Source: an uncultured delta proteobacterium (lineage in GTDB: Bacteria; Desulfobacterota; Zymogenia; Zymogenales; Zymogenaceae). From it: a DNA stretch of 64,000 bases. A program made the translations under genes and the position numbers. Where the stretch lies: contig CAVTLK010000005.1 of NCBI GenBank assembly GCA_963735595.1, positions 512,001-576,000 on the forward strand, written 5' to 3'. Of this stretch, positions 28,207 through 51,446 are shown in pieces. Below the pieces are notes generated by a model. The model worked only from the letters and a program-made list of their open reading frames with translations. It did no database searches and was not told the DNA's origin. Within the stretch, counting starts at the first letter, position 1; every line of letters begins with the position of its first letter.

Positions 28207-28231
28207 AAAGGGGGCCGAGGCCCCCTTTTTT
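28205..28231. terminator. Bidirectional intrinsic terminator
   Basis: AAAAAGGGGGCC-ga-GGCCCCCTTTTT between convergent genes. Confidence 0.88.
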
Positions 28232-28250
28232 GTTTCTATCACGATCGATC

Positions 28251-30213
28251 CTACAGCTTCAGTTCCCCCAGCCCCAGCTCTTTGATCTTATCCTTCGTCG
28301 GGCCGCCGGTGGTCCGGTCCCAGCCCATCATCTCGAAGAAGCCCTTCTCGAGCCCCGGCATATCGAGGGTCAGTCCCTTGTGGGGGCCGGCCGTCATCGG
28401 GGGGCTGCCCCATCCGCGGCCGTGCATGGCGGCGTCCTTGGCCTTGAGCCCCTCGCGGACGTTGAAGGCCTTACGCAGCGACAGCAGCCGCTCTCCGATG
28501 ACCCAGTAGTCGTCGGGCCCGAGCTTCCAGCCGGTCGAGGCGTTGATGTATTCGATGATCGGAAGCGGGCTCGTCAACGGGCCGAACTCGCACATCCCGC
28601 AGCCGTTCATGATCTGCATATAGACCGTTGTCGCTTTGTAGAGGGCAACGTCCTTCATCTGGCCCTTGGCTGCCTTGATCTCTTTCTTGGCCCGGGGGAA
28701 GATCTTCTTAACCCCCCAAAGGTTGCCGTACAGGAGGCTGGCGATGGTATGGCGGCCGGGGGTCGGCTCGCACTGGTAGGCGAGCGCAAAGCCCTTGTCG
28801 AGCTTGGGATCGTGCATGGGAAGCTCCTGGCCTCCCGCGTGCACGGCGTATTTATCCGGCGCCCTTGCCGATCTCCTCGGCGGCCTTACGGGAGCCGTCG
28901 GCCAGGAGGTCGCCGATTCCCTTGCGCTCGATGATCATCTCTACGAGCTTCTTGATCTCGGCGGACTTACCCCAGCCGAGCTTGAGGCCCCCGGTATCCT
29001 TTTCGGTGATGATGCCTTTCTCGAAGCATTCTATGGCAAAGGCTACCGTCCCGCCGGTAGAGATCGTATCGATGCCGGCGCGGTTGCACATCTCGTTGAT
29101 CTCGACGATGGAGTCCAGATCGTCGTGGAGGATCAGCGCGCCAAAGGCGCAGAGGGTCTCGTACTCGGGCTTGTGCCCCTCGGTCCCCTTGTATTTTCCG
29201 GTCTTGATGTCGAAGATCCCGCCGCAGCCCAGCGGGCAGGACTGGCAGTGATATTTCTTCTTCTCGTTCCTGACGAGCTCCTTATCCGAGAGCTTGTAGC
29301 TCATCGTGTCGACCGGGAACTCTTTGTAGCCCACGCCGTCCCAGTTCTTGACCGGGCTGTCGCCCACTTCCGCCGAGTAGCCCGTCAGGCCGCCGGTGCC
29401 GTACTGCTTCATGAGGAGCCGGACGGTGGAGGGCTGGGTCGGGATGGAGACGCCGGTGCGCCCGATGATCTTGCTGATGAAGTTGAGCAGCATGACGGAT
29501 ATCTTGTCGGGCGGGCCGATCTTCTTGAACTTGTTCATGAACTTCTTATTGAGGTCTTTCATCTTCTCCGGGTCGGCAACCGTAACCTTGCCCTTGCCGC
29601 GGACGGAAAACGCCTTGAGCTTCTTGGAGCCCATGACGGCGCCCAGGCCCGAGCGGGCGGCGATCCGGCCGCTGTCGGTAACGACCCCGGAGATGAGGGA
29701 GATCTTTTCCCCGGACTGCCCGATGCTGGCAACCTGGATGTTCTTGTCCTTGAGGTCGGCCTTGATGATCTCTTCCGTCTCGACGGTGTCTTTACCCCAT
29801 AGCTTTTTGGCGTCCTTGAACTCGATCTTCTCGTCGGCGATATGCACCCAGACGGGTTCCTTGGCCGCCCCGGTGAAAAAGACCGCGTCGTACCCGGCCT
29901 TTTTGAGCTCGTTGGAGAAAAAGCCGCCCGAGTTTGCGTCGCCCCAGCCGCCGGTCAGCGGCGACTTGCCGACGACCATGTAGCGTCCGGAAAACATGGC
30001 GCCCGTCCCGGTCAAGAGCCCCGTGCAGAAGCCGAGGTAGCTCTCGGCGGAGAGGGGATTGATACCCGGTTTCTGCCGTTCGGTGATGACCGCGGCGCCC
30101 AGCCCATAGCCCGAGAGATACTTCTTGTAGAATTCCTCTTTCGGCTTGATAACGTCGAAGCTTTTCTTTCCCAGATCAATGATCAGGTATTTTCCCGTGA
30201 ATCCGCCCGGCAT
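28251..30213 (-). CDS. Aldehyde:ferredoxin oxidoreductase family protein, frameshifted near 28857
   Basis: KSPLTGGWGDANSGG, GAVMGSKKLKA, CQSCPLGC and PEYET motifs. Removing one G from GCCGGATAAA gives GKGADKYAVHAGGQELPMHDP and joins the two ORFs. Confidence 0.92.
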
Positions 30214-30681: not shown

Positions 30682-33600
30682 TCACTTCGACAGCACGTCA
30701 TTGAGCAGTGCGACTAACGCATCGACGTTAAAAGGTTTCTCGATGTACCTGTTATTGGTGGTCTGTAGGAATAATAGCGTATCTTTGTTCAGGACGTCCC
30801 CGGTTATGAAAACGACCTTGTCCGCTATCTCGGGGTGGTGCTTATGGATATAGATGAACAGCCCCTTTCCGTCAATTCCCGGCATCTTAATGTCAGATAT
30901 CACCGCATCGTATTTTCGCTTCTCGATTAGACGTATGGCTTCCTCCCCGGATGAAGCCGCCTCAATAAAGAACCCTCCCTCGGTAAGGGATTCCTCCAGG
31001 AGGTTCCGGAGCGACTCCTCGTCCTCTACCACGAGCACGGTCTTAACGCCTTTCGGCACCTTTACGGGGGTCTTGACCTCCTCTCCTTTCTCTTCTTCTC
31101 TCTCTTCCGTCATCGGAAGCGTCACGATAAACTTTGTACCCTTGCCCGGTTCGCTTTCCGCTGAGATGGTTCCACCGTGCTCCTTGATAATACCGTAGGC
31201 CATGCTGAGCCCAAGGCCCGTTCCCTTCCCAACTTCCTTTGTGGTAAAGAACGGATCGAATATCTTCTTGACCAACTCCTTGTCAATACCCGGGCCGTTA
31301 TCCTCGAACTCTATTAGGATAGCATTATCTTTTCTGTAAGTTCTGATGATAAGCGCCGCTTTCTCGCGATCGGCAAGCGCATCGCGGGCGTTATTGATGA
31401 TGTTGATAAAGACCTGGTGAAGCTGGTAGGCATCGGCGTATGTCTCGGAGAGATCCTCGGAAAACAAAGTCCCCACGGAAATATTGCTGACCTTTAAATC
31501 GTATTCCCTGAGCTTGAGCGCTTCCATCAGGGTATTGTTGATATTGACCATCTTGCGTTCCGGCTTGTGCTCCCGGGCGAACGCCAACAACCCGCCGACT
31601 ATCTTTGAAGATCGTATCGATTCTTTGAGGATGACGCTCAGTTTGTTCTTGATGTCCGCGGGCACGTCTCGTTTCGCAAGCAACTGCGCGTTGCCGATGA
31701 TCGAGGTGAGCGGGTTGTTGAGCTCGTGGGCTACACCGGAGATCATCGTGCCCACGGCCGAGAGTTTCTCGGTCTGCAGAAGCTGAAGTTCCAGATTTCT
31801 CTTTTCCGTGATGTCTCTCACCACGCCCTGAAAACCGACGGCGTTTCCATCCTTGTCCGTTATGGAAGTAACCGTCACCAGGGCATTGATCAGCGTACCG
31901 TCCTTCTTCTTTAGCTTCAGCTCGCGGGAGTCAATAAATCCTTTTCTCAGTACTTCCTTCACGAATTTTTCACGATCTTCAGGATCGGCATAAAAATCGA
32001 CTATATTCAGGTTTTTGAACTCTTCTGGTGAATAACCGGACAGCCTTCTTACCGCCTGATTTACATCGATGATCCTGCCATCCAGTGCAGCGATATATAT
32101 GAAATCCGGGGATGTCTCAAACAGGTTCCTGAACTTTTCCTCGGATTCCCTCAGTGCTTCTTCCGCCCGCCTGCGGTCGGTGACGTCGTGGATAATGGAA
32201 TGCAGAAGTTCTTTTCCTTTTGCCTCGATTTTGCTGCTGAATACCTCCACATCCCTAACGGAGCCGTCCGCCCTCCGATGATGAAACTCAAAATGAACAC
32301 GTTCTAATGATCTCACTTTTTCTATCTCTTTCTTAACTTCATCGGGCGGGAGCGTGTTGATATCCTGGATACTCATTTCTTTGAGTCGTTCAATCGGCCA
32401 GCCGTAAAATCTTGCCGCAGCTTTGTTCGCTTCGACAATACGCCCGGTATCCGGATCAATGATCAGCTTGACGGCGGCGTGGTACTCGAACAATTTTCTG
32501 AAAAGCTCCTCGCTCTGTCGAAGTTCCTCTTCGGCTTTCCTGCGCCCGGTCAAGTCCCGGGCGATGCCTACGGTGCCGACGACCTCTCCTCGTTCATCGA
32601 AGATCGGGGTCTTGATCGTCTCTATCCAGTTAATCTTCCCCTGTTTATCAGCCAGGGGCTCTTCGACGATCTTTACAGTCCCCAAACGCATGACCTCTCT
32701 ATCGTCCTCCTGGTAACGCCGGGCCAGGTCTTCGGGCCATATGTCAAGATCGCTTTTGCCGATGAGATCCTCGGAGGAAAAACCGCACGATCGACCGAAA
32801 GGATCGTTGACTGCGAGGAATCGGCCCTCCGCATCCTTGAGCCAGGCAATTTCGGGAATGTTGTTGATAAGGGCCTTAAGGCGGCGCTCCGATTCAAGAA
32901 GGGATGCGGTGAGCTGCCCAGCTCTTCCTCGGCTCGCTTTTGTTCGGTGATGTCAGTTATCAGACCCGTAAAACCGATAACGGAACCGGCCTCAACGATG
33001 GGATTGGATGACGAGCGGACATACCGATAAGAGCCGGTTTTTGTGATAGTTCTAAATACCGCCTCTTTTTTGATTCCTTCTAAAGATTGTCTAAAGACGG
33101 AGATGAGCTTTGGAAGATCTTCTGGATGAATGAATTCGGCGAAGTTCTTCTTCATATATTCATCTGCGCTAAAGCCCGATATATTCTCAGCAACCGGGCT
33201 GATATACATGACTGTTCCGTTTAAGTCGATATTGAATACGACATCGTTGATGTTCTCCACGAGGGAACGGTATTTCTCCTCATTTTTTCTAAGCGCCTCT
33301 TCAGCCAGCTTGCGATCGGTGGTTTCTTTCATGATTTCCAAAGCGCATTGCCGGCCGTCGGGAAGCGAGATTGGCAGTGAGTGGATCTCGAGCCACGAGC
33401 CGTCCTCCATCCGGGTCTCCCGGACATGGATTGTCTTATCGGCGAGCGAGCGGGCGGCAGTGCAGTATTCGCAGGGAAAACTACTCTTCCGGTAATGCTT
33501 GTGGCACTTCTTGCCAAGCCCGCCGCCGTACTTCTCTCGAGACGCCCGGTTCTGAAACACCAGCACCATATCCTTATCGATGATGTCTATCGGATCGGGC

Positions 33601-35051
33601 ATCGCATTGATGATGCTTTCGTTGAACTCCTTGATGTAACCTATATCCCGTTGGGCCTGTTCCTCGCGTTGTTTTGACTCGATGGCCCGAAGTGCGTAAC
33701 CGACATCCCCGGCGACTTCCTCCAACAGCTTGATTTCCTCGGCATCGAAGAGATCTGTCCGATCGGCATAGACGTTCAGTGCCCCATAAATATTCTTTCC
33801 ATGAAAGATGGGGGTCGCGATTGAACTCTTATACCCTCTCTTCTCAGCCTCTTTTCGCCACGGCGCGTATTGTGGTACTGTTAAATCCTTTAAAACGGAT
33901 GTTTTCCCGGTCTTTATCGCCATCCCGGTCGGCCCCATCCCCGTCGCTTCACCGTCCCAGGTCATCTTGACCTTTGTGAGATACCCGTCTTCATATCCGT
34001 AATGGGCGGCCGGCACGACCCTTTTGTGGCCCTCTTCAATCATCCCTATCCAGACCAATCGGTACCCGCTCAGCTCCGAGAGAATATGACACACGTCTTC
34101 TAGGAGCTTCTCTTTGTCCTTTTCCTTTACGATAACTTGGTTAACAGTTCGGATTGATTTCAGCAGGCGATTGAGATGAGCGATATGTTCCTCGGCACGT
34201 TTGCGCTTCGTGATATCGTTCACGACAATGTAAAGGCCCTTGACCTTCCCGTCAGAGCCGATATTTGGTATATACGTGACCAGTCCGTATATCGTGTCTC
34301 CGGAGGATACTTCGATCGGCGCCTCGAAAGTGATCCGTTGGCCGGATAGGGCTTGCTTTACGTAGGGCTTTGACCGCCGGAAGGCTTCATCCCCGATCAC
34401 TTCCGGTATCGTACGTCCCAGGATCGATTCCGGTTTTTGACCGTGCCACCGTTCATACTGGGCATTGGCAAACAGATAGCGGAGCTTGCGGTCCACTTGG
34501 GCGACGGTGCCGGGCAGGTTATCGGCAATGGCCGAGAGAAGTTTTTCTCGTTTTAGAAGCTCCTCCACGGCCCGCGCGATCGCGGTGATATCGTTTCTCT
34601 TTTCCTGTCCATCCGGCCTATCCCGATCTATCTTCTCCTGCGCTTTTCCGAGCGAGACACGAGCTTTTTTTCGCTCGATGCCGTACAGCAGAGAACGTAT
34701 CAGCGCAAATGCGGTGATATGCCCTTTCACAAGGTAATCCTGGGCACCCGCCTGTAGCGCAGATAACGCGATGGACTCATTTTCAGTAACGGAACAGACG
34801 ATTATGGGGACATCGGAGGCAACGGGTTTCAGCTTTTTTAGCGTATCAATACCTTCACTGTCGGGGAGGTTAAGGTTAAGGAGGACAATATCAAACCGTT
34901 TTCTCGCCAAGATATCCTGCGCCGATGAAAGCCGATCGACCGTTTCCACGATGAACAGGCCTTTTTGCCCTTTGGCAAGCAGGTCCGTGATTGCCCGGGC
35001 ATCGAGGACATTGTCCTCGACGACGAGGACCCGTATCGATTCTTTTTTCAT
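30682..35051 (-). CDS. Large hybrid sensor kinase (REC-PAS-GAF-multiple PAS-HisKA-HATPase-REC), frameshifted at 32917-32919
   Basis: Adding one base at CTGGGCAG restores EEELxQLTASLLESERRLKALINNIP and joins the two ORFs; GVAHELNNPL and GKGTGLGL motifs; lower GC than flanks. Confidence 0.92.
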
Positions 35052-35725: not shown

Positions 35726-37345
35726 CTACTTGGCCGGGCATTGAATCTTCTTCAGCTTTTCGGCATAGACGAAGTTGTCGTCGTTTTCGGGGTTGTGGCA
35801 GGAGATACAGTCGGTCGCCGAGGTGAGGTGGCGCATCTTGTTGGCCGTGTTGTCCTTGACGTGCAGGCTCCCCGGTCCGTGGCAGACCTCGCACTGGACG
35901 CCCAGGAGGTCCTTCGCCGTCAGGATATTGTTGAATCCCCCGGGCTTGCGGTAGCCGGTGGTGTGGCAGGCGATACAGTTCGGCTCGAACTGCCGCTCGT
36001 CTTCCCGGAGGGTCTCATAGGCCTTCACGTGTGCGGTCCCGGAGACAAAGGAGTATATCCTGGTGTGGCATACTTTGCAGCTTTCCATCCCCACGTAGTG
36101 GGGCTCGACCGAGAGAGAGGAGGTATCACGCCTGCCTTCCTCGAGCAGCGATTCCTTTTCCTGGTTCTTTATCTCCAGGAGCTTGTCGGCGTACTTCTTG
36201 AAAATACCCCTTACATCCGGGTCGTCCGCAAGGCTCGCATCCAGAGCGATCAGGGACGCCGTCACGGTGTTCGGATGCTCCGCATCCGGCCCCTCTCCCA
36301 GCTTTTCGAGCCTCTTATTTACCTGCTCCATTTCGTCGGTGACGACCTCTTCGATCGCTGCGACGTCCTTACCCTCTTTCTTCTGGGCCTCGATATCGGC
36401 AATGAAGATATCGAGCTGCTTCTTCCTCATGATCAGCTCCCGGTGCTCGAAGGAGTCCGATTTTTCGCTTCCTGCAATAAAGAAGTTATAGGGGCGTTTG
36501 GTATCGCCGATCGAGAAATCCAGCCGGTCGATATACTTGCCCCGGGCGAATATCTCGGTAATCAGGGTGTTTTTCTCGGTGATCGGCTGGTAGAGGTTGA
36601 TATCGCCCCCGTGGCCCACGATAATCAGGTCGACGGCGTCAAAGCCCTTCGCCAGGACCTTGGCGTCGTTGGTGCCGGTATGGGCGAGCACCACGATGAA
36701 GTCGGCCTTGTTCTCAAGCTCCCGTATGACGGCGGCCAGCGCGTTCTCCGGATCGGATAGGATGATCCCGAGCTCCTCCTGACGCGTGGCCTTAAAGTCC
36801 GTATCCTTCCCGATGACCGAGGTTATGCCGACCCGAAATCCGTTGACCTTGACGACGGTATAGGGCTCAAAGACGTACTTATTGGTCTTCGCGTCCAGTA
36901 CGTTGGCGGCAATAAACGGGAAATCGGCCGTCTTTTCGAGGTCCTTGAGGTAGTCCAGACCCAGCGCGAATTCCTTTTCGCCCAGCCCCAGGGCGGTCCA
37001 TCCCATCGCGTTATACGACTCGATGATCTTCCTGCCCTGGATAGCAAGCGTGATGTCGGGGTCGTCGCCGTAGTTATAGTCATGGAACAACAGGTCGCCC
37101 GCGTCCAGGAGGAGAAGGTCCTTAACTTCTTCCCGCACCGTACCGATATATGTCGCCTTTCTTGGCAGACCGCCAATTTGGTTGGATTTTCACCCACAGG
37201 GCTCGGTCTCGCCGAGGACATCGTTGCTGTAGACGATCGTGAAGTCGGCGGCCGGCGGCGTGTAGTTATCGCAGTACGATACGCCCATAAAGATGAAGAA
37301 GAGAGCCAGAACTATCGCGATGTTGGGCCGGAGGGTCTTACGCAT
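35726..37345 (-). CDS. Exported selenoprotein: UshA/5'-nucleotidase-like domain with CGU motif plus tetraheme cytochrome c (c554-like) domain
   Basis: ATG 37345 reads MRKTLRPNIAIVLALFFIFMGVSYC...YSNDVLGETEPCG-TGA(37192-37190)-KSNQIGGLPRKATYI in frame with the annotated ORF. LLDAGD motif, four CxxCH motifs, SECIS-like hairpin after the TGA. Confidence 0.88.
37162..37192 (-). promoter_or_regulatory. Sec UGA codon and bacterial SECIS element
   Basis: UGA, 13 nt, then UUGGC-GGUCU-GCCAA, similar to the E. coli fdhF SECIS apex GCAGGUCUGC. Confidence 0.82.
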
Positions 37346-37571
37346 CAAGGTACTCCAAAGATATTTTTGTTATTATACGATATGGGGGGGAAGCTGTCAA
37401 TACCGGATGCGTACCCACCCCGCGGGATACATGCCGTTTACCCCCGAAATTTGTCTTGAATAACACTATACGAATGATACAATATACTATGTGCCGTCCC
37501 CGGACGTGACATGGATTTCCGGAGCCGTACCCCGCGTTAAACAGAGCGGATCTTTTTGAAGAGGTGTCGTA

Positions 37572-45775: not shown

Positions 45776-46357
45776 ATGAAGATCGATGCGCGCGGGCTCG
45801 ACTGTCCCGAGCCCGTGGTCAAGACAAAACAGGCCCTCGGGATGATCGACGAGGGAACCGTCGAGATCCTCGTGGACAACGAGGGGGCCGTCGGGAACCT
45901 CCAGCGGCTCGCGCAGTCGCAGAAGCTTGCCTGTTCGGTCGTCAAAGAGGGGAAATGCTGGCGCGTGCGCGTCACCAAGGCGGGGTCGGACGCCGACGCG
46001 CCCGCAGTCTGCGCCCCTGCAGTCGGAGAGACGTTCCTGATCGTCGGTACCGACTCGCTCGGAAAGGACGAGGCGCTCGGGAAGGTCCTGATGATCCGGT
46101 TCTTCGAGACGATGGCGGCGGGTAATGACCTTCCCCATACGGTCTTTTTTCTCAACGCGGGGGTCCGCCTGACAACCACCGAAGACAGCGTCGTACCGCA
46201 GCTGCGTAAGCTCGCCGAAGAAGGCGTCAACGTCTTTTCGTGCGGCACCTGCCTGAAGTTCTATGAAATCGACAAGGAGCTTAAAGTCGGCAAGACCGGC
46301 AGCATAGACCAGGTGGTGGACGCCGTGACGGGGACGCTCCGGGTGGTGTGGGTGTAG
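45776..46357 (+). CDS. yedF: Sulfurtransferase-like selenium metabolism protein (TusA plus DsrE-like domains)
   Basis: DARGLDCPEPVV.TK, LG....LG..LM..F, F.NAGV.L and SCGTCL.FY motifs. Confidence 0.9.
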   Translation: MKIDARGLDCPEPVVKTKQALGMIDEGTVEILVDNEGAVGNLQRLAQSQKLACSVVKEGKCWRVRVTKAGSDADAPAVCAPAVGETFLIVGTDSLGKDEALGKVLMIRFFETMAAGNDLPHTVFFLNAGVRLTTTEDSVVPQLRKLAEEGVNVFSCGTCLKFYEIDKELKVGKTGSIDQVVDAVTGTLRVVWV

Positions 46358-50181: not shown

Positions 50182-50209
50182 TTTCGTTTCAGATCTTAAT
50201 GTGGGGGAA

Positions 50210-51317
50210 ATGGAGATGAAAGACAAACGGGAGAAGGGCCGGATGTGCGGTGTGGGGGGCGCCGACGTTAAGCGGGCGGGGGCGGCCGGGGCGTGCGGCG
50301 TGCGCGGTGGTGCGCCGGAGCCGTCCGGCAGTACGGCGAAGCGCGGTACAGCAAAGGGCGGCACGGGATTTAGCATACGGCCGATGCGCGCCGGCCACCG
50401 GCGGTCGCTCGACGCGGCCCTCAAGATGGGGCACTGCGCGCCGGCGGTGATGGCGGCGCTGATCGCCGACGGCGACCCCGGCCGGGAGAGCGCCGTTATG
50501 TTAGCCTCGGCGATGGCCGGCGGTATCGGCAACAGCGGCCGCGAGTGCGGCGCGCTGACCTCGTCGATCCTGTACCTGGGCGACCGGTACGGGGAAGGGG
50601 AAGGGGCCGGGCCGGGCGGGGTGCCGCTGTCGATCTCATTGTCACAGCGGCTGATCGACCGGTTCGGGGAGGTGCACGGCGGCATCCATTGCGAGGAGAT
50701 CAGGAAGGGCGGGAAAAACCCGCTGCCCTGCATGCGGGCAATGGTCAGCGCGCCGGAGCTCGTCCGGGAGGTCATCGGCGCCGACGTGACGCCCCCCGGC
50801 GATGCGTGCCCCGACTGCCATACCTCCGGCCTGCCGGCGGCTTGCGGGGAACGGCCGTTCCACTGTGTACGCCGCGTCTTTTCGGAGCTTTCCGGCATCG
50901 TCCCCGAGTGCGGGCGGCTGACGGATATGACCTACCCGTTCGTCGGCGGGTTCGCGCTCTCGGGCGGGACGTGCACGGCCGCCGCCGCGGGGGTGCTCGC
51001 GATAGGCCTTGCGACGGGCCGGATCGAGAACAGCTACCGCCGGGTCTTCGCGATGATGGCGAGGATGTTAATGGGCGGCGACATGATGGCCGACGATGTA
51101 AATAATTTCAACCCGGCCATAAACCGGGGCCAGGTGCTCATGGAGTGGTTTGCCGAAACGTATGGGAGCGTGCGCTGCGCCGACCTGACGGGGATCGATA
51201 TCCGGGAGCCGAAGCGGCCGGCCGCTACTTCTCCGAAGGCGGCATCGACCGCTGCGAGGCGATCGCCGCGGCGGTGGCGACAGAAGGCACAGGGAGATTA
51301 TCGGGGACCGGGGGTAA
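50210..51317 (+). CDS. C-GCAxxG-C-C family redox protein with two tandem domains, frameshifted near the 3' end
   Basis: HCAPAV, AGGIG..G.ECGA, F....G.IHC.EI, then HCV, GG....GGTC.A, YGSVRC.DLTG. Indels near 51209 and 51280-51290; start and stop uncertain. Confidence 0.75.
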
Positions 51318-51353
51318 GGTTGGGGCGGCAATGGGGCGGGTACGTCCCTCACC

Positions 51354-51446
51354 GTCATTGCGAGGAGCGGCAGCGACGAAGCAATCCCCTTGTTGTACGG
51401 TGACAGTCAGGGGATTGCCGCGCACCCTCCGGGTGCTCGCAATGAC
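51354..51446. repeat. Palindromic REP/RPE-like element, type A, copy 3
   Basis: GTCATTGCGAG...GCAATCCCCT / AGGGGATTGC...CTCGCAATGAC. Confidence 0.9.

Follow-up and report, generated by a model that had tools for sequence, protein, structure and literature searches.

A gene on the minus strand of the window (the whole stretch of DNA analysed, 64,000 nucleotides) encodes a 539-aa member of the UshA-like family NF041198, in which a 5'-nucleotidase-type domain, as predicted, is followed by a tetraheme cytochrome domain with the fold of cytochrome c554. The catalytic residues of nucleotidases are lost and a C-G-(U/C) motif is invariant, its last residue in this protein being encoded by an internal TGA. 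We propose, with a probability of roughly 40%, that the product is a membrane-anchored, periplasm-facing thiol:cytochrome oxidoreductase working in the oxidising direction, a heme-wired soluble counterpart of DsbB, VKOR and MauE. Electron transfer between a thiol/disulfide couple and the hemes, whichever its direction, is held at somewhat better than even odds. The features of the gene are the following.

37372..37400, minus strand: putative sigma-70-type promoter-like site, TTGACA-17-TATAAT, 12 of 12 consensus positions (from the sequence)
37353..37356, minus strand: Shine-Dalgarno-like GGAG, 7 nt 5' of the ATG (from the sequence; purine-rich in kin)
35726..37345, minus strand: whole gene, 539 aa, NF041198 UshA-like selenoprotein with four hemes (frame translation and profile match)
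37271..37345, minus strand: putative export signal, residues 1-25, up to the conserved Cys25 (helix 7-23 in the model, hydropathy)
36146..37252, minus strand: predicted 5'-nucleotidase-type N-terminal fold, residues 32-400, with a degenerate dimetal site and a long linker helix (structure model, ligand counts)
37190..37198, minus strand: Cys50-Gly51-Sec52 motif, TGA at 37192-37190 (C-G-(C/U) in 71 of 71 covering rows; 27 TGA and 31 TGY in DNA)
37162..37176, minus strand: candidate bacterial SECIS-type hairpin, 5-bp stem, GGUCU loop (comparative support; weak taken singly)
36302..36451, minus strand: helical hairpin insertion, residues 299-348 (DSSP helices 299-323 and 329-348; missing from shorter members of about 400-480 aa)
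35729..36109, minus strand: cytochrome c554-like tetraheme domain, residues 413-539, CxxCH at 36079, 35977, 35893 and 35809 (PF13435 and structure alignment)
35738..35740, minus strand: Cys536, probable axial heme ligand (Cys/His alternation, c554 alignment)

The frame runs from an ATG at 37345 to a TAG at 35728-35726, and its lone in-frame TGA is codon 52 (37192-37190), in the context GETEPCG*KSNQIGG. The mechanical ORF track opens it only at a GTG at 37138 (470 aa); as the earlier note had suspected, the frame is hidden behind that start and extends through the one TGA to the ATG, and the four CxxCH motifs announced for the C-terminal end of a 539-aa product are found at residues 423, 457, 485 and 513. 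The TTGACA box is unchanged in all 8 family genomes aligned, with a -10 box near consensus, and the gene is present in all 10 genomes of the host's family, which fits a housekeeping role. Another near-consensus promoter is found at 35182-35154, close to a pair of genes for a PAS/GAF response regulator and a hybrid kinase (window 30682-35051).

Export, previously predicted from a signal peptide, is consistent with the N-terminus, where a basic stretch is followed by a hydrophobic helix and by Cys25, conserved in 10 of the 10 closest rows. Cys25 is the probable anchor of a lipoprotein, although its lipobox (VSYC) is atypical. This is the only hydrophobic segment, the best hydropathy of any later 19-residue stretch being 1.08, and all 12 Cys/Sec positions can be assigned to a role, none being spare. 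Fragments from wetland metatranscriptomes (n=3) were mostly 85-99% alike; they come from relatives and are no proof of expression in this host. The best public DNA run shares 0.26 of words, and thus contains no reads of this strain.

The internal TGA is very likely read as selenocysteine, judging from codon conservation and from the gene content of the host. It is kept in all nine family kin: eight have a full gene with one TGA, and the ninth is split over contig ends, with the TGA in the N-terminal piece. A motif-pattern search of loci L026-L150, in which only loci within the pattern are counted, gave 58 distinct motifs, 27 with TGA, spread across phyla, and 31 with TGC or TGT. Homologues with neither Cys nor Sec at this position had been named beforehand as a possible refutation; one or the other is present in 71 of 71 rows. 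TGC or TGT in place of the TGA had been named as well, and the contigs of four of four public runs, which are those of relatives and not this strain's reads, have no other letter at 37190-37192.

The host genome contains selB, two selD genes (one with its own in-frame TGA), a tRNA-Sec with anticodon TCA, and selA, so that the selA/selB/selC/selD set, proposed earlier as a check, is located in full. In this assembly selA is in two frames (G000:C4:329754-331101). It is whole in four of the five kin searched (G001, G002, G003, G007), and one tuf copy (C4:550906-551806), the second selD (C3:24665-25476) and an aldehyde:ferredoxin oxidoreductase (AOR) gene (window 28230-30213) are split over two frames as well; the selA split is therefore likely an assembly indel. 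In another kin genome, G005, selA (G005:C16:161118-162382) is in five pieces with several stops, though the TGA-bearing UshA-like gene is kept; this reflects either an assembly error or a recent loss of Sec synthesis. The yedF at 45776, taken by the earlier note as a sign of selenium use, is correctly identified (TIGR03527, 180 bits against a cut-off of 110) but lies 8 kb off, outside the locus, so that the relevant selenium evidence is the set of sel genes elsewhere in the genome. A gene for a heme c assembly protein was also found.

The hairpin UUGGC-GGUCU-GCCAA, described before, is located 13 nt past the UGA (37176-37162), its loop 18 nt past it. In the part of PMC13188914 that was available, bacterial SECIS elements are described by a loop of 3-9 nt, a stem of 4-16 bp, a G first in the loop and a distance of 16-37 nt from the UGA, with a free energy of -7.5 kcal/mol or lower. 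Agreement is found for three of the four criteria taken from that part of the source, the geometry (5-nt loop GGUCU, 5-bp stem, 18 nt) being in range and energy being the exception: the isolated hairpin reaches -5.0 kcal/mol, and the 48-nt segment -8.6 but in another fold, with -7.6 in the 95%-identical kin G003. Its stability was no better than that of shuffles (three windows, z -0.01 to -1.2), and the minimum-energy fold is a different one. Of the TGA genes, 23 of 27 have a hairpin at -4 or below, versus 10 of 31 of the Cys genes; GGT, a synonymous choice, is the loop codon in 25 of 27 and 6 of 28, respectively, kin not being independent. RNAalifold, run on 17 TGA genes, gave no consensus structure, as the stem occurs in two registers, with loops of 5 and 6 nt. 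Two named structures, derived from the same sequences on which they were scored, showed 70% and 78% paired cells, and 6 and 3 double changes; at other slides 28-48% of the cells were paired. Support for the hairpin, weak alone, is comparative. A genome-wide scan for motif and hairpin was noisy, with 22 matches, two of them this gene and its paralogue.

The protein matches NCBIfam NF041198 (UshA_like_PCGU) with 523.1 bits against a cut-off of 275, residues 13-528 being aligned to positions 2-519 of the 519 in the profile, and contains its PCG-U motif (P49-C50-G51-U52). The UshA-like identity proposed earlier is thereby borne out over the full length, and the gene is a further member of a catalogued family, not a new one. 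Since the profile spans the heme domain, that domain is part of the known family, and the heme fusion is no additional twist: the curated model already covers it. Published lists, in the portions available, include UshA-like selenoproteins since 2008 with no function given; the portions of PMC2398784, PMC9312934 and PMC13188914 at hand tabulate them as COG0737 UshA-like, CxU, with neither function nor hemes. A literature search returned no study of this family, and none combining c554, nucleotidase and selenocysteine; another, on disulfide bond formation with multiheme cytochromes and DsbA, returned nothing touching it. The closest named matches are deltaproteobacterial MAG proteins, and many matches begin past the TGA. 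Of 151 genomes of the host's phylum, 37 have a match over the NF041198 cut-off, and members are also found in Myxococcota, Planctomycetota, Acidobacteriota, Nitrospirota and others.

Other members of different architecture were observed. In the host, a heme-less paralogue of 318 aa (G000:C1:959983-960925; L056:7972-8925) also carries PCG-U, its hairpin is stronger (-10.9 kcal/mol), and the next gene encodes a MobA-like NTP transferase; short TGA-bearing matches like it occur in nine of nine family kin. Long fusions (920-1330 aa) with large unannotated extensions are found at L079, L087, L101, L117, L132, L134 and P0048; the one at L101 has a Peptidase_M61_N match, and those at L132 and L134 come after a signal peptidase gene.

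The structure was predicted with pLDDT 88.7 and pTM 0.82, the latter no more than hinting that the domains are fixed relative to each other. The domain that had been called metallophosphatase-like is modelled as a 5'-nucleotidase-type (calcineurin-like) fold, which VIA-align superimposes on 3ivd with Z 34.1 and rmsd 2.2 over 278 aligned residues. Its nucleotidase motifs are altered (NDVH to NDVL, GNHE to GEKE). In alignment A1, the first-site His44 is found in 0 of 71 rows, Asn123 in 0 of 83 and His124 in 2 of 83; we take these to be dimetal ligands and, for His124, the catalytic GNH histidine of 5'-nucleotidases. In the same alignment C50, G51 and C/U52 occur in 71 of 71 rows, with the caveat that a C in database proteins may stand for a U that was written as C. 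As the aligned rows indicate, the catalytic histidine has been lost family-wide while C-G-U/C is invariant. The C-terminal nucleotide-binding domain PF02872 has no match in the protein, PF13435 being found in its place.

The heme domain was aligned to 1bvb over 127 of 127 residues (Z 11.9, rmsd 2.8; next match 7.7). Outside the CxxCH motifs the only invariant histidines are His439 and His495, and the ligands available to the four distal heme sites are His439, His495 and Cys536 only, in models that carry no hemes. At the last conserved ligand site, the 56 heme-bearing loci divide into 18 with Cys and 38 with His. Since the end of the model falls on c554 residue 182, Cys536 corresponds to about residue 179, presumably a heme ligand in c554. 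Cys536 probably ligates heme, because Cys and His alternate there and because it maps near that residue. Of the 25 Sec-type loci 18 have this Cys, against none of the 31 Cys-type loci. Position 521 carries His in 24 of the latter and 2 of the former, and Asn in this protein. The Asn would leave one heme open, as is heme 2 in c554 and OcwA according to the available part of 10.1101/641308. Co-evolution of the Sec/Cys state with the heme-ligand state was considered and dropped, since the counts follow two large clades on a quick tree. A complex prediction of N-domain and heme domain with four hemes, for the homologue P0003, scored 0.03 and was used neither way.

The earlier view of an exported redox enzyme coupling a Cys/Sec centre to a heme chain holds as far as sequence can test it, and a cycle can be outlined. 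UGA52 would be decoded as selenocysteine via SelB and tRNA-Sec, and the protein would be exported, anchored by Cys25 and loaded with four c hemes. Cys50 and Sec52 would alternate between the thiol/selenol state and a selenenylsulfide, in exchange with envelope dithiols directly or via DsbA- or thioredoxin-type carriers. The heme domain, placed on the linker that holds the closing lid in nucleotidases, would re-oxidise the pair in one-electron steps; one of its hemes would be ligated by His and Cys536, another would have no distal His, and the electrons would reach partner cytochromes and the quinone pool. The oxidising reading is supported by the invariance of C50, G51 and C/U52 in a domain that has lost its nucleotidase ligands, by the absence of any spare Cys/Sec position, and by the following co-occurrence and neighbourhood data.

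In a 2026 preprint (10.64898/2026.03.05.709764), as far as its available part goes, MauE has a periplasmic CGC loop as required active site and replaces DsbB in E. coli, 20% of bacterial species have none of DsbB, VKOR and MauE, and further disulfide pathways are said to be missing. Because of this CGC precedent, co-occurrence with the three oxidases was examined in 151 genomes of the host's phylum, at least 90% complete, in 46 of which the heme-fused form was called by hand from match rows (one row unlisted). MauE is present in 6 of these 46 genomes versus 50 of the 105 without the form, and any of MauE, VKOR and DsbB in 9 of 46 versus 56 of 105, kin not being independent; counted by family, the latter figures become 6 of 20 versus 32 of 54 (p 0.04). 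Among the 69 genomes with a DsbA-like protein, an oxidase is found in 4 of 20 with the heme-fused form versus 30 of 49 without. DsbD_TM, used as a control, is not avoided (34 of 46 versus 84 of 105), a single control being thin. This pattern, together with the MauE precedent, argues for the oxidising reading, although shared ancestry may account for the avoidance of MauE. No enrichment of DsbA-like proteins is seen with the heme-fused form (20 of 46 versus 49 of 105); known oxidases are also little enriched with them (34 of 65 versus 35 of 86), and a PF01323 match is absent from 6 of 10 family genomes. Some DsbA-like matches contain one in-frame TGA (G036:C51, G039:C309, G014:C98, G068:C15, G109:C61, G125:C9, G145) and are probable DsbA-like selenoproteins.

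Neighbourhoods were collected for 94 loci with an N-domain match, a few being true nucleotidases or heme-less; 90 chosen neighbours or fusions and 42 cluster representatives were scanned, out of 193 candidates. A CxxC DsbA-like gene lies directly downstream in 4 of 94 loci (L127, L131, L140, L141), thioredoxin or TlpA adjoins in 2 (L064, L079), ResB or ResB/CcsA is close by in 2 (L131, L141), and NapC-type or b/c-type membrane cytochromes adjoin or lie within about 5 kb in 6 (L065, L066, L067, L069, L113, L119). These neighbours are again in favour of the oxidising reading. Against it count the lack of DsbA-like enrichment, the mostly unrelated neighbours of most loci, with none found family-wide, the absence of any NapC match in a search of the host genome, and the heme-less paralogues with the same motif. 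The window contains no redox partners of the proposed kind. The host carries a VKOR-DsbA fusion (G000:C1:1050575-1051747), so that the UshA-like protein is not needed as sole oxidase, and this too speaks against the oxidising direction. Moreover, selenocysteine and His/Cys hemes as a rule go with low potential and suit reduction, MccSep being an example.

Here the gene is flanked by a divergent amidohydrolase gene and by the PAS-domain two-component pair. In kin the AOR gene comes directly after it; in the window the PAS/GAF regulator and hybrid kinase pair separates the two, which adjoin in G001, G002, G005 and G006. L065, L066, L067, L069 and L119 share a conserved link with two proteins, a NapC-type cytochrome of 16 hemes and one combining 9 hemes with cytochrome b, and L066 has a tandem heme-less Sec paralogue as well. 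A second full-length Sec copy in G001 (L064:3848-12236, G001:C72) lies in an arsenic-resistance-like cluster, with thioredoxin, a DsbD_2 membrane protein, an Acr3-type transporter, an ArsP permease and TauE. A DUF1573 Ig-like gene is directly upstream in L078, L082 and L106, and DciA directly downstream in L084, L086, L100 and L105. Elsewhere in the window, 50201-51400 encodes a protein with two C-GCAxxG-C-C (PF09719) stretches, the second of which may end in a frameshift; PF09719 includes selenoprotein members.

A wider form of the oxidising reading would make NF041198 the missing fourth disulfide-forming route: a soluble, often selenium-using, dead-nucleotidase scaffold, passing thiol electrons to a c554-type heme wire and not to quinone, and replacing DsbB, VKOR or MauE in many anaerobic lineages. 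We regard this generalisation as doubtful.

Electrons might instead run the opposite way, from quinol through NapC/CbcL-type cytochromes to the hemes, with Cys/Sec reducing envelope disulfides, sulfenic acids or thiol-bound metalloids. The six loci with NapC-type 16-heme and b/c-type 9-heme neighbours, the second G001 copy among thioredoxin, DsbD_2, Acr3-type, ArsP and TauE genes, and the neighbouring ResB/CcsA, which require reduced CxxCH, all speak for such a flow, as does the general suitability of Sec and a His/Cys heme for reduction. Reductant suppliers of the DsbD_TM type are, however, equally common with or without the heme-fused form, the avoidance concerns oxidases and not DsbD, and DsbA-type neighbours fit poorly; this direction is considered unlikely.

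Still less is to be expected from a respiratory or detoxifying polysulfide, persulfide or selenite reductase, in which the substrate would be attacked by Sec next to a heme that is open or has a Cys ligand. The combination of Sec with a probable His/Cys heme recalls MccSep (PMC13510729, available part), the Sec-type loci account for all the Cys536 cases and lack His521 in 23 of 25, and heme 2 is the open site in c554 and OcwA (10.1101/641308, in the same part as above). But these correlations follow the two large clades, the fold is unlike that of MccSep, and no sulfur-respiration genes were found among the scanned neighbours; besides, many Cys-type members, in Myxococcota, seem to have His at every heme site, so that a catalytic heme would not be family-wide.

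A residual metallohydrolase, SoxB-like or nucleotidase-like, with C-G-U and hemes as redox switch or co-substrate site, appears improbable. This protein keeps D42, D84, H222 and H245, with Glu for Asn at 123, and a possible single-metal set, D84/E123/H222/H245, occurs in 29 rows out of 81; SoxB comes second among the NCBIfam matches (86 bits against a cut-off of 550) and shares the fold of the N-domain (Z 32.1) and its linker helix over about 280 residues. The set is nevertheless lost in the close orthologues G007, G008 and G009, the catalytic and first-site histidines are gone, and the substrate-binding lid is missing. Finally, a pseudogene or split gene, its TGA a true stop or an assembly error, might be suggested by the two-frame selA and by a hairpin weak alone, but is largely refuted by the TGA in nine of nine kin and across phyla, by Cys in homologues, by the selA intact in four kin beside tuf, second selD and AOR splits expected as assembly indels, and by the in-frame TGAs of the heme-less paralogue and of selD1.

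Compared with other NF041198 members, nothing family-defining differs, apart from the 50-residue helical insert and the Cys in place of His at the last heme-ligand site of this branch. UshA/CD73 and SoxB have the N-terminal fold and linker helix in common with it (Z 32-34, about 280 residues), while here the lid domain is swapped for a cytochrome, a C-G-U loop is added, and the motifs read NDVL and GEKE. With Nitrosomonas cytochrome c554 (1bvb) and hemes 1-4 of OcwA it shares the fold, four CxxCH and two conserved distal His, but the domain is compact, fused to the N-domain, and has its last distal His replaced by Cys. MccSep (ExtKL, NF040886), a multiheme selenoenzyme polysulfide reductase, is likewise exported and multiheme, with c-type hemes, a single Sec and a His/Cys heme that is only predicted for the present protein; it has five hemes, an Ig-like Sec domain and no CxU pair, in contrast to four hemes and a Sec within a nucleotidase fold, and its profile match is weak and limited to heme motifs (E 7.6e-7). 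The periplasmic CGC loop of MauE resembles C-G-U and may, by analogy, have the same role, but MauE, DsbB and VKOR are four-helix, quinone-using membrane proteins with no homology to this soluble heme domain protein, whose activity is a prediction.

A gene such as this one usually enters annotations wrongly, as a hypothetical protein cut down to 470 aa. To the published record the analysis adds the loss of the catalytic His, a c554 fold in the place of the lid, the Cys536/His alternation, a conserved sigma-70 promoter and the rare co-occurrence with MauE, VKOR and DsbB. The family matters in being widespread across the phylum and beyond, with a function so far only proposed. If envelope disulfides are indeed made or broken via hemes, part of the gap left by DsbB, VKOR and MauE would be filled, and a second chemistry, after MccSep, would link selenocysteine to a multiheme chain.
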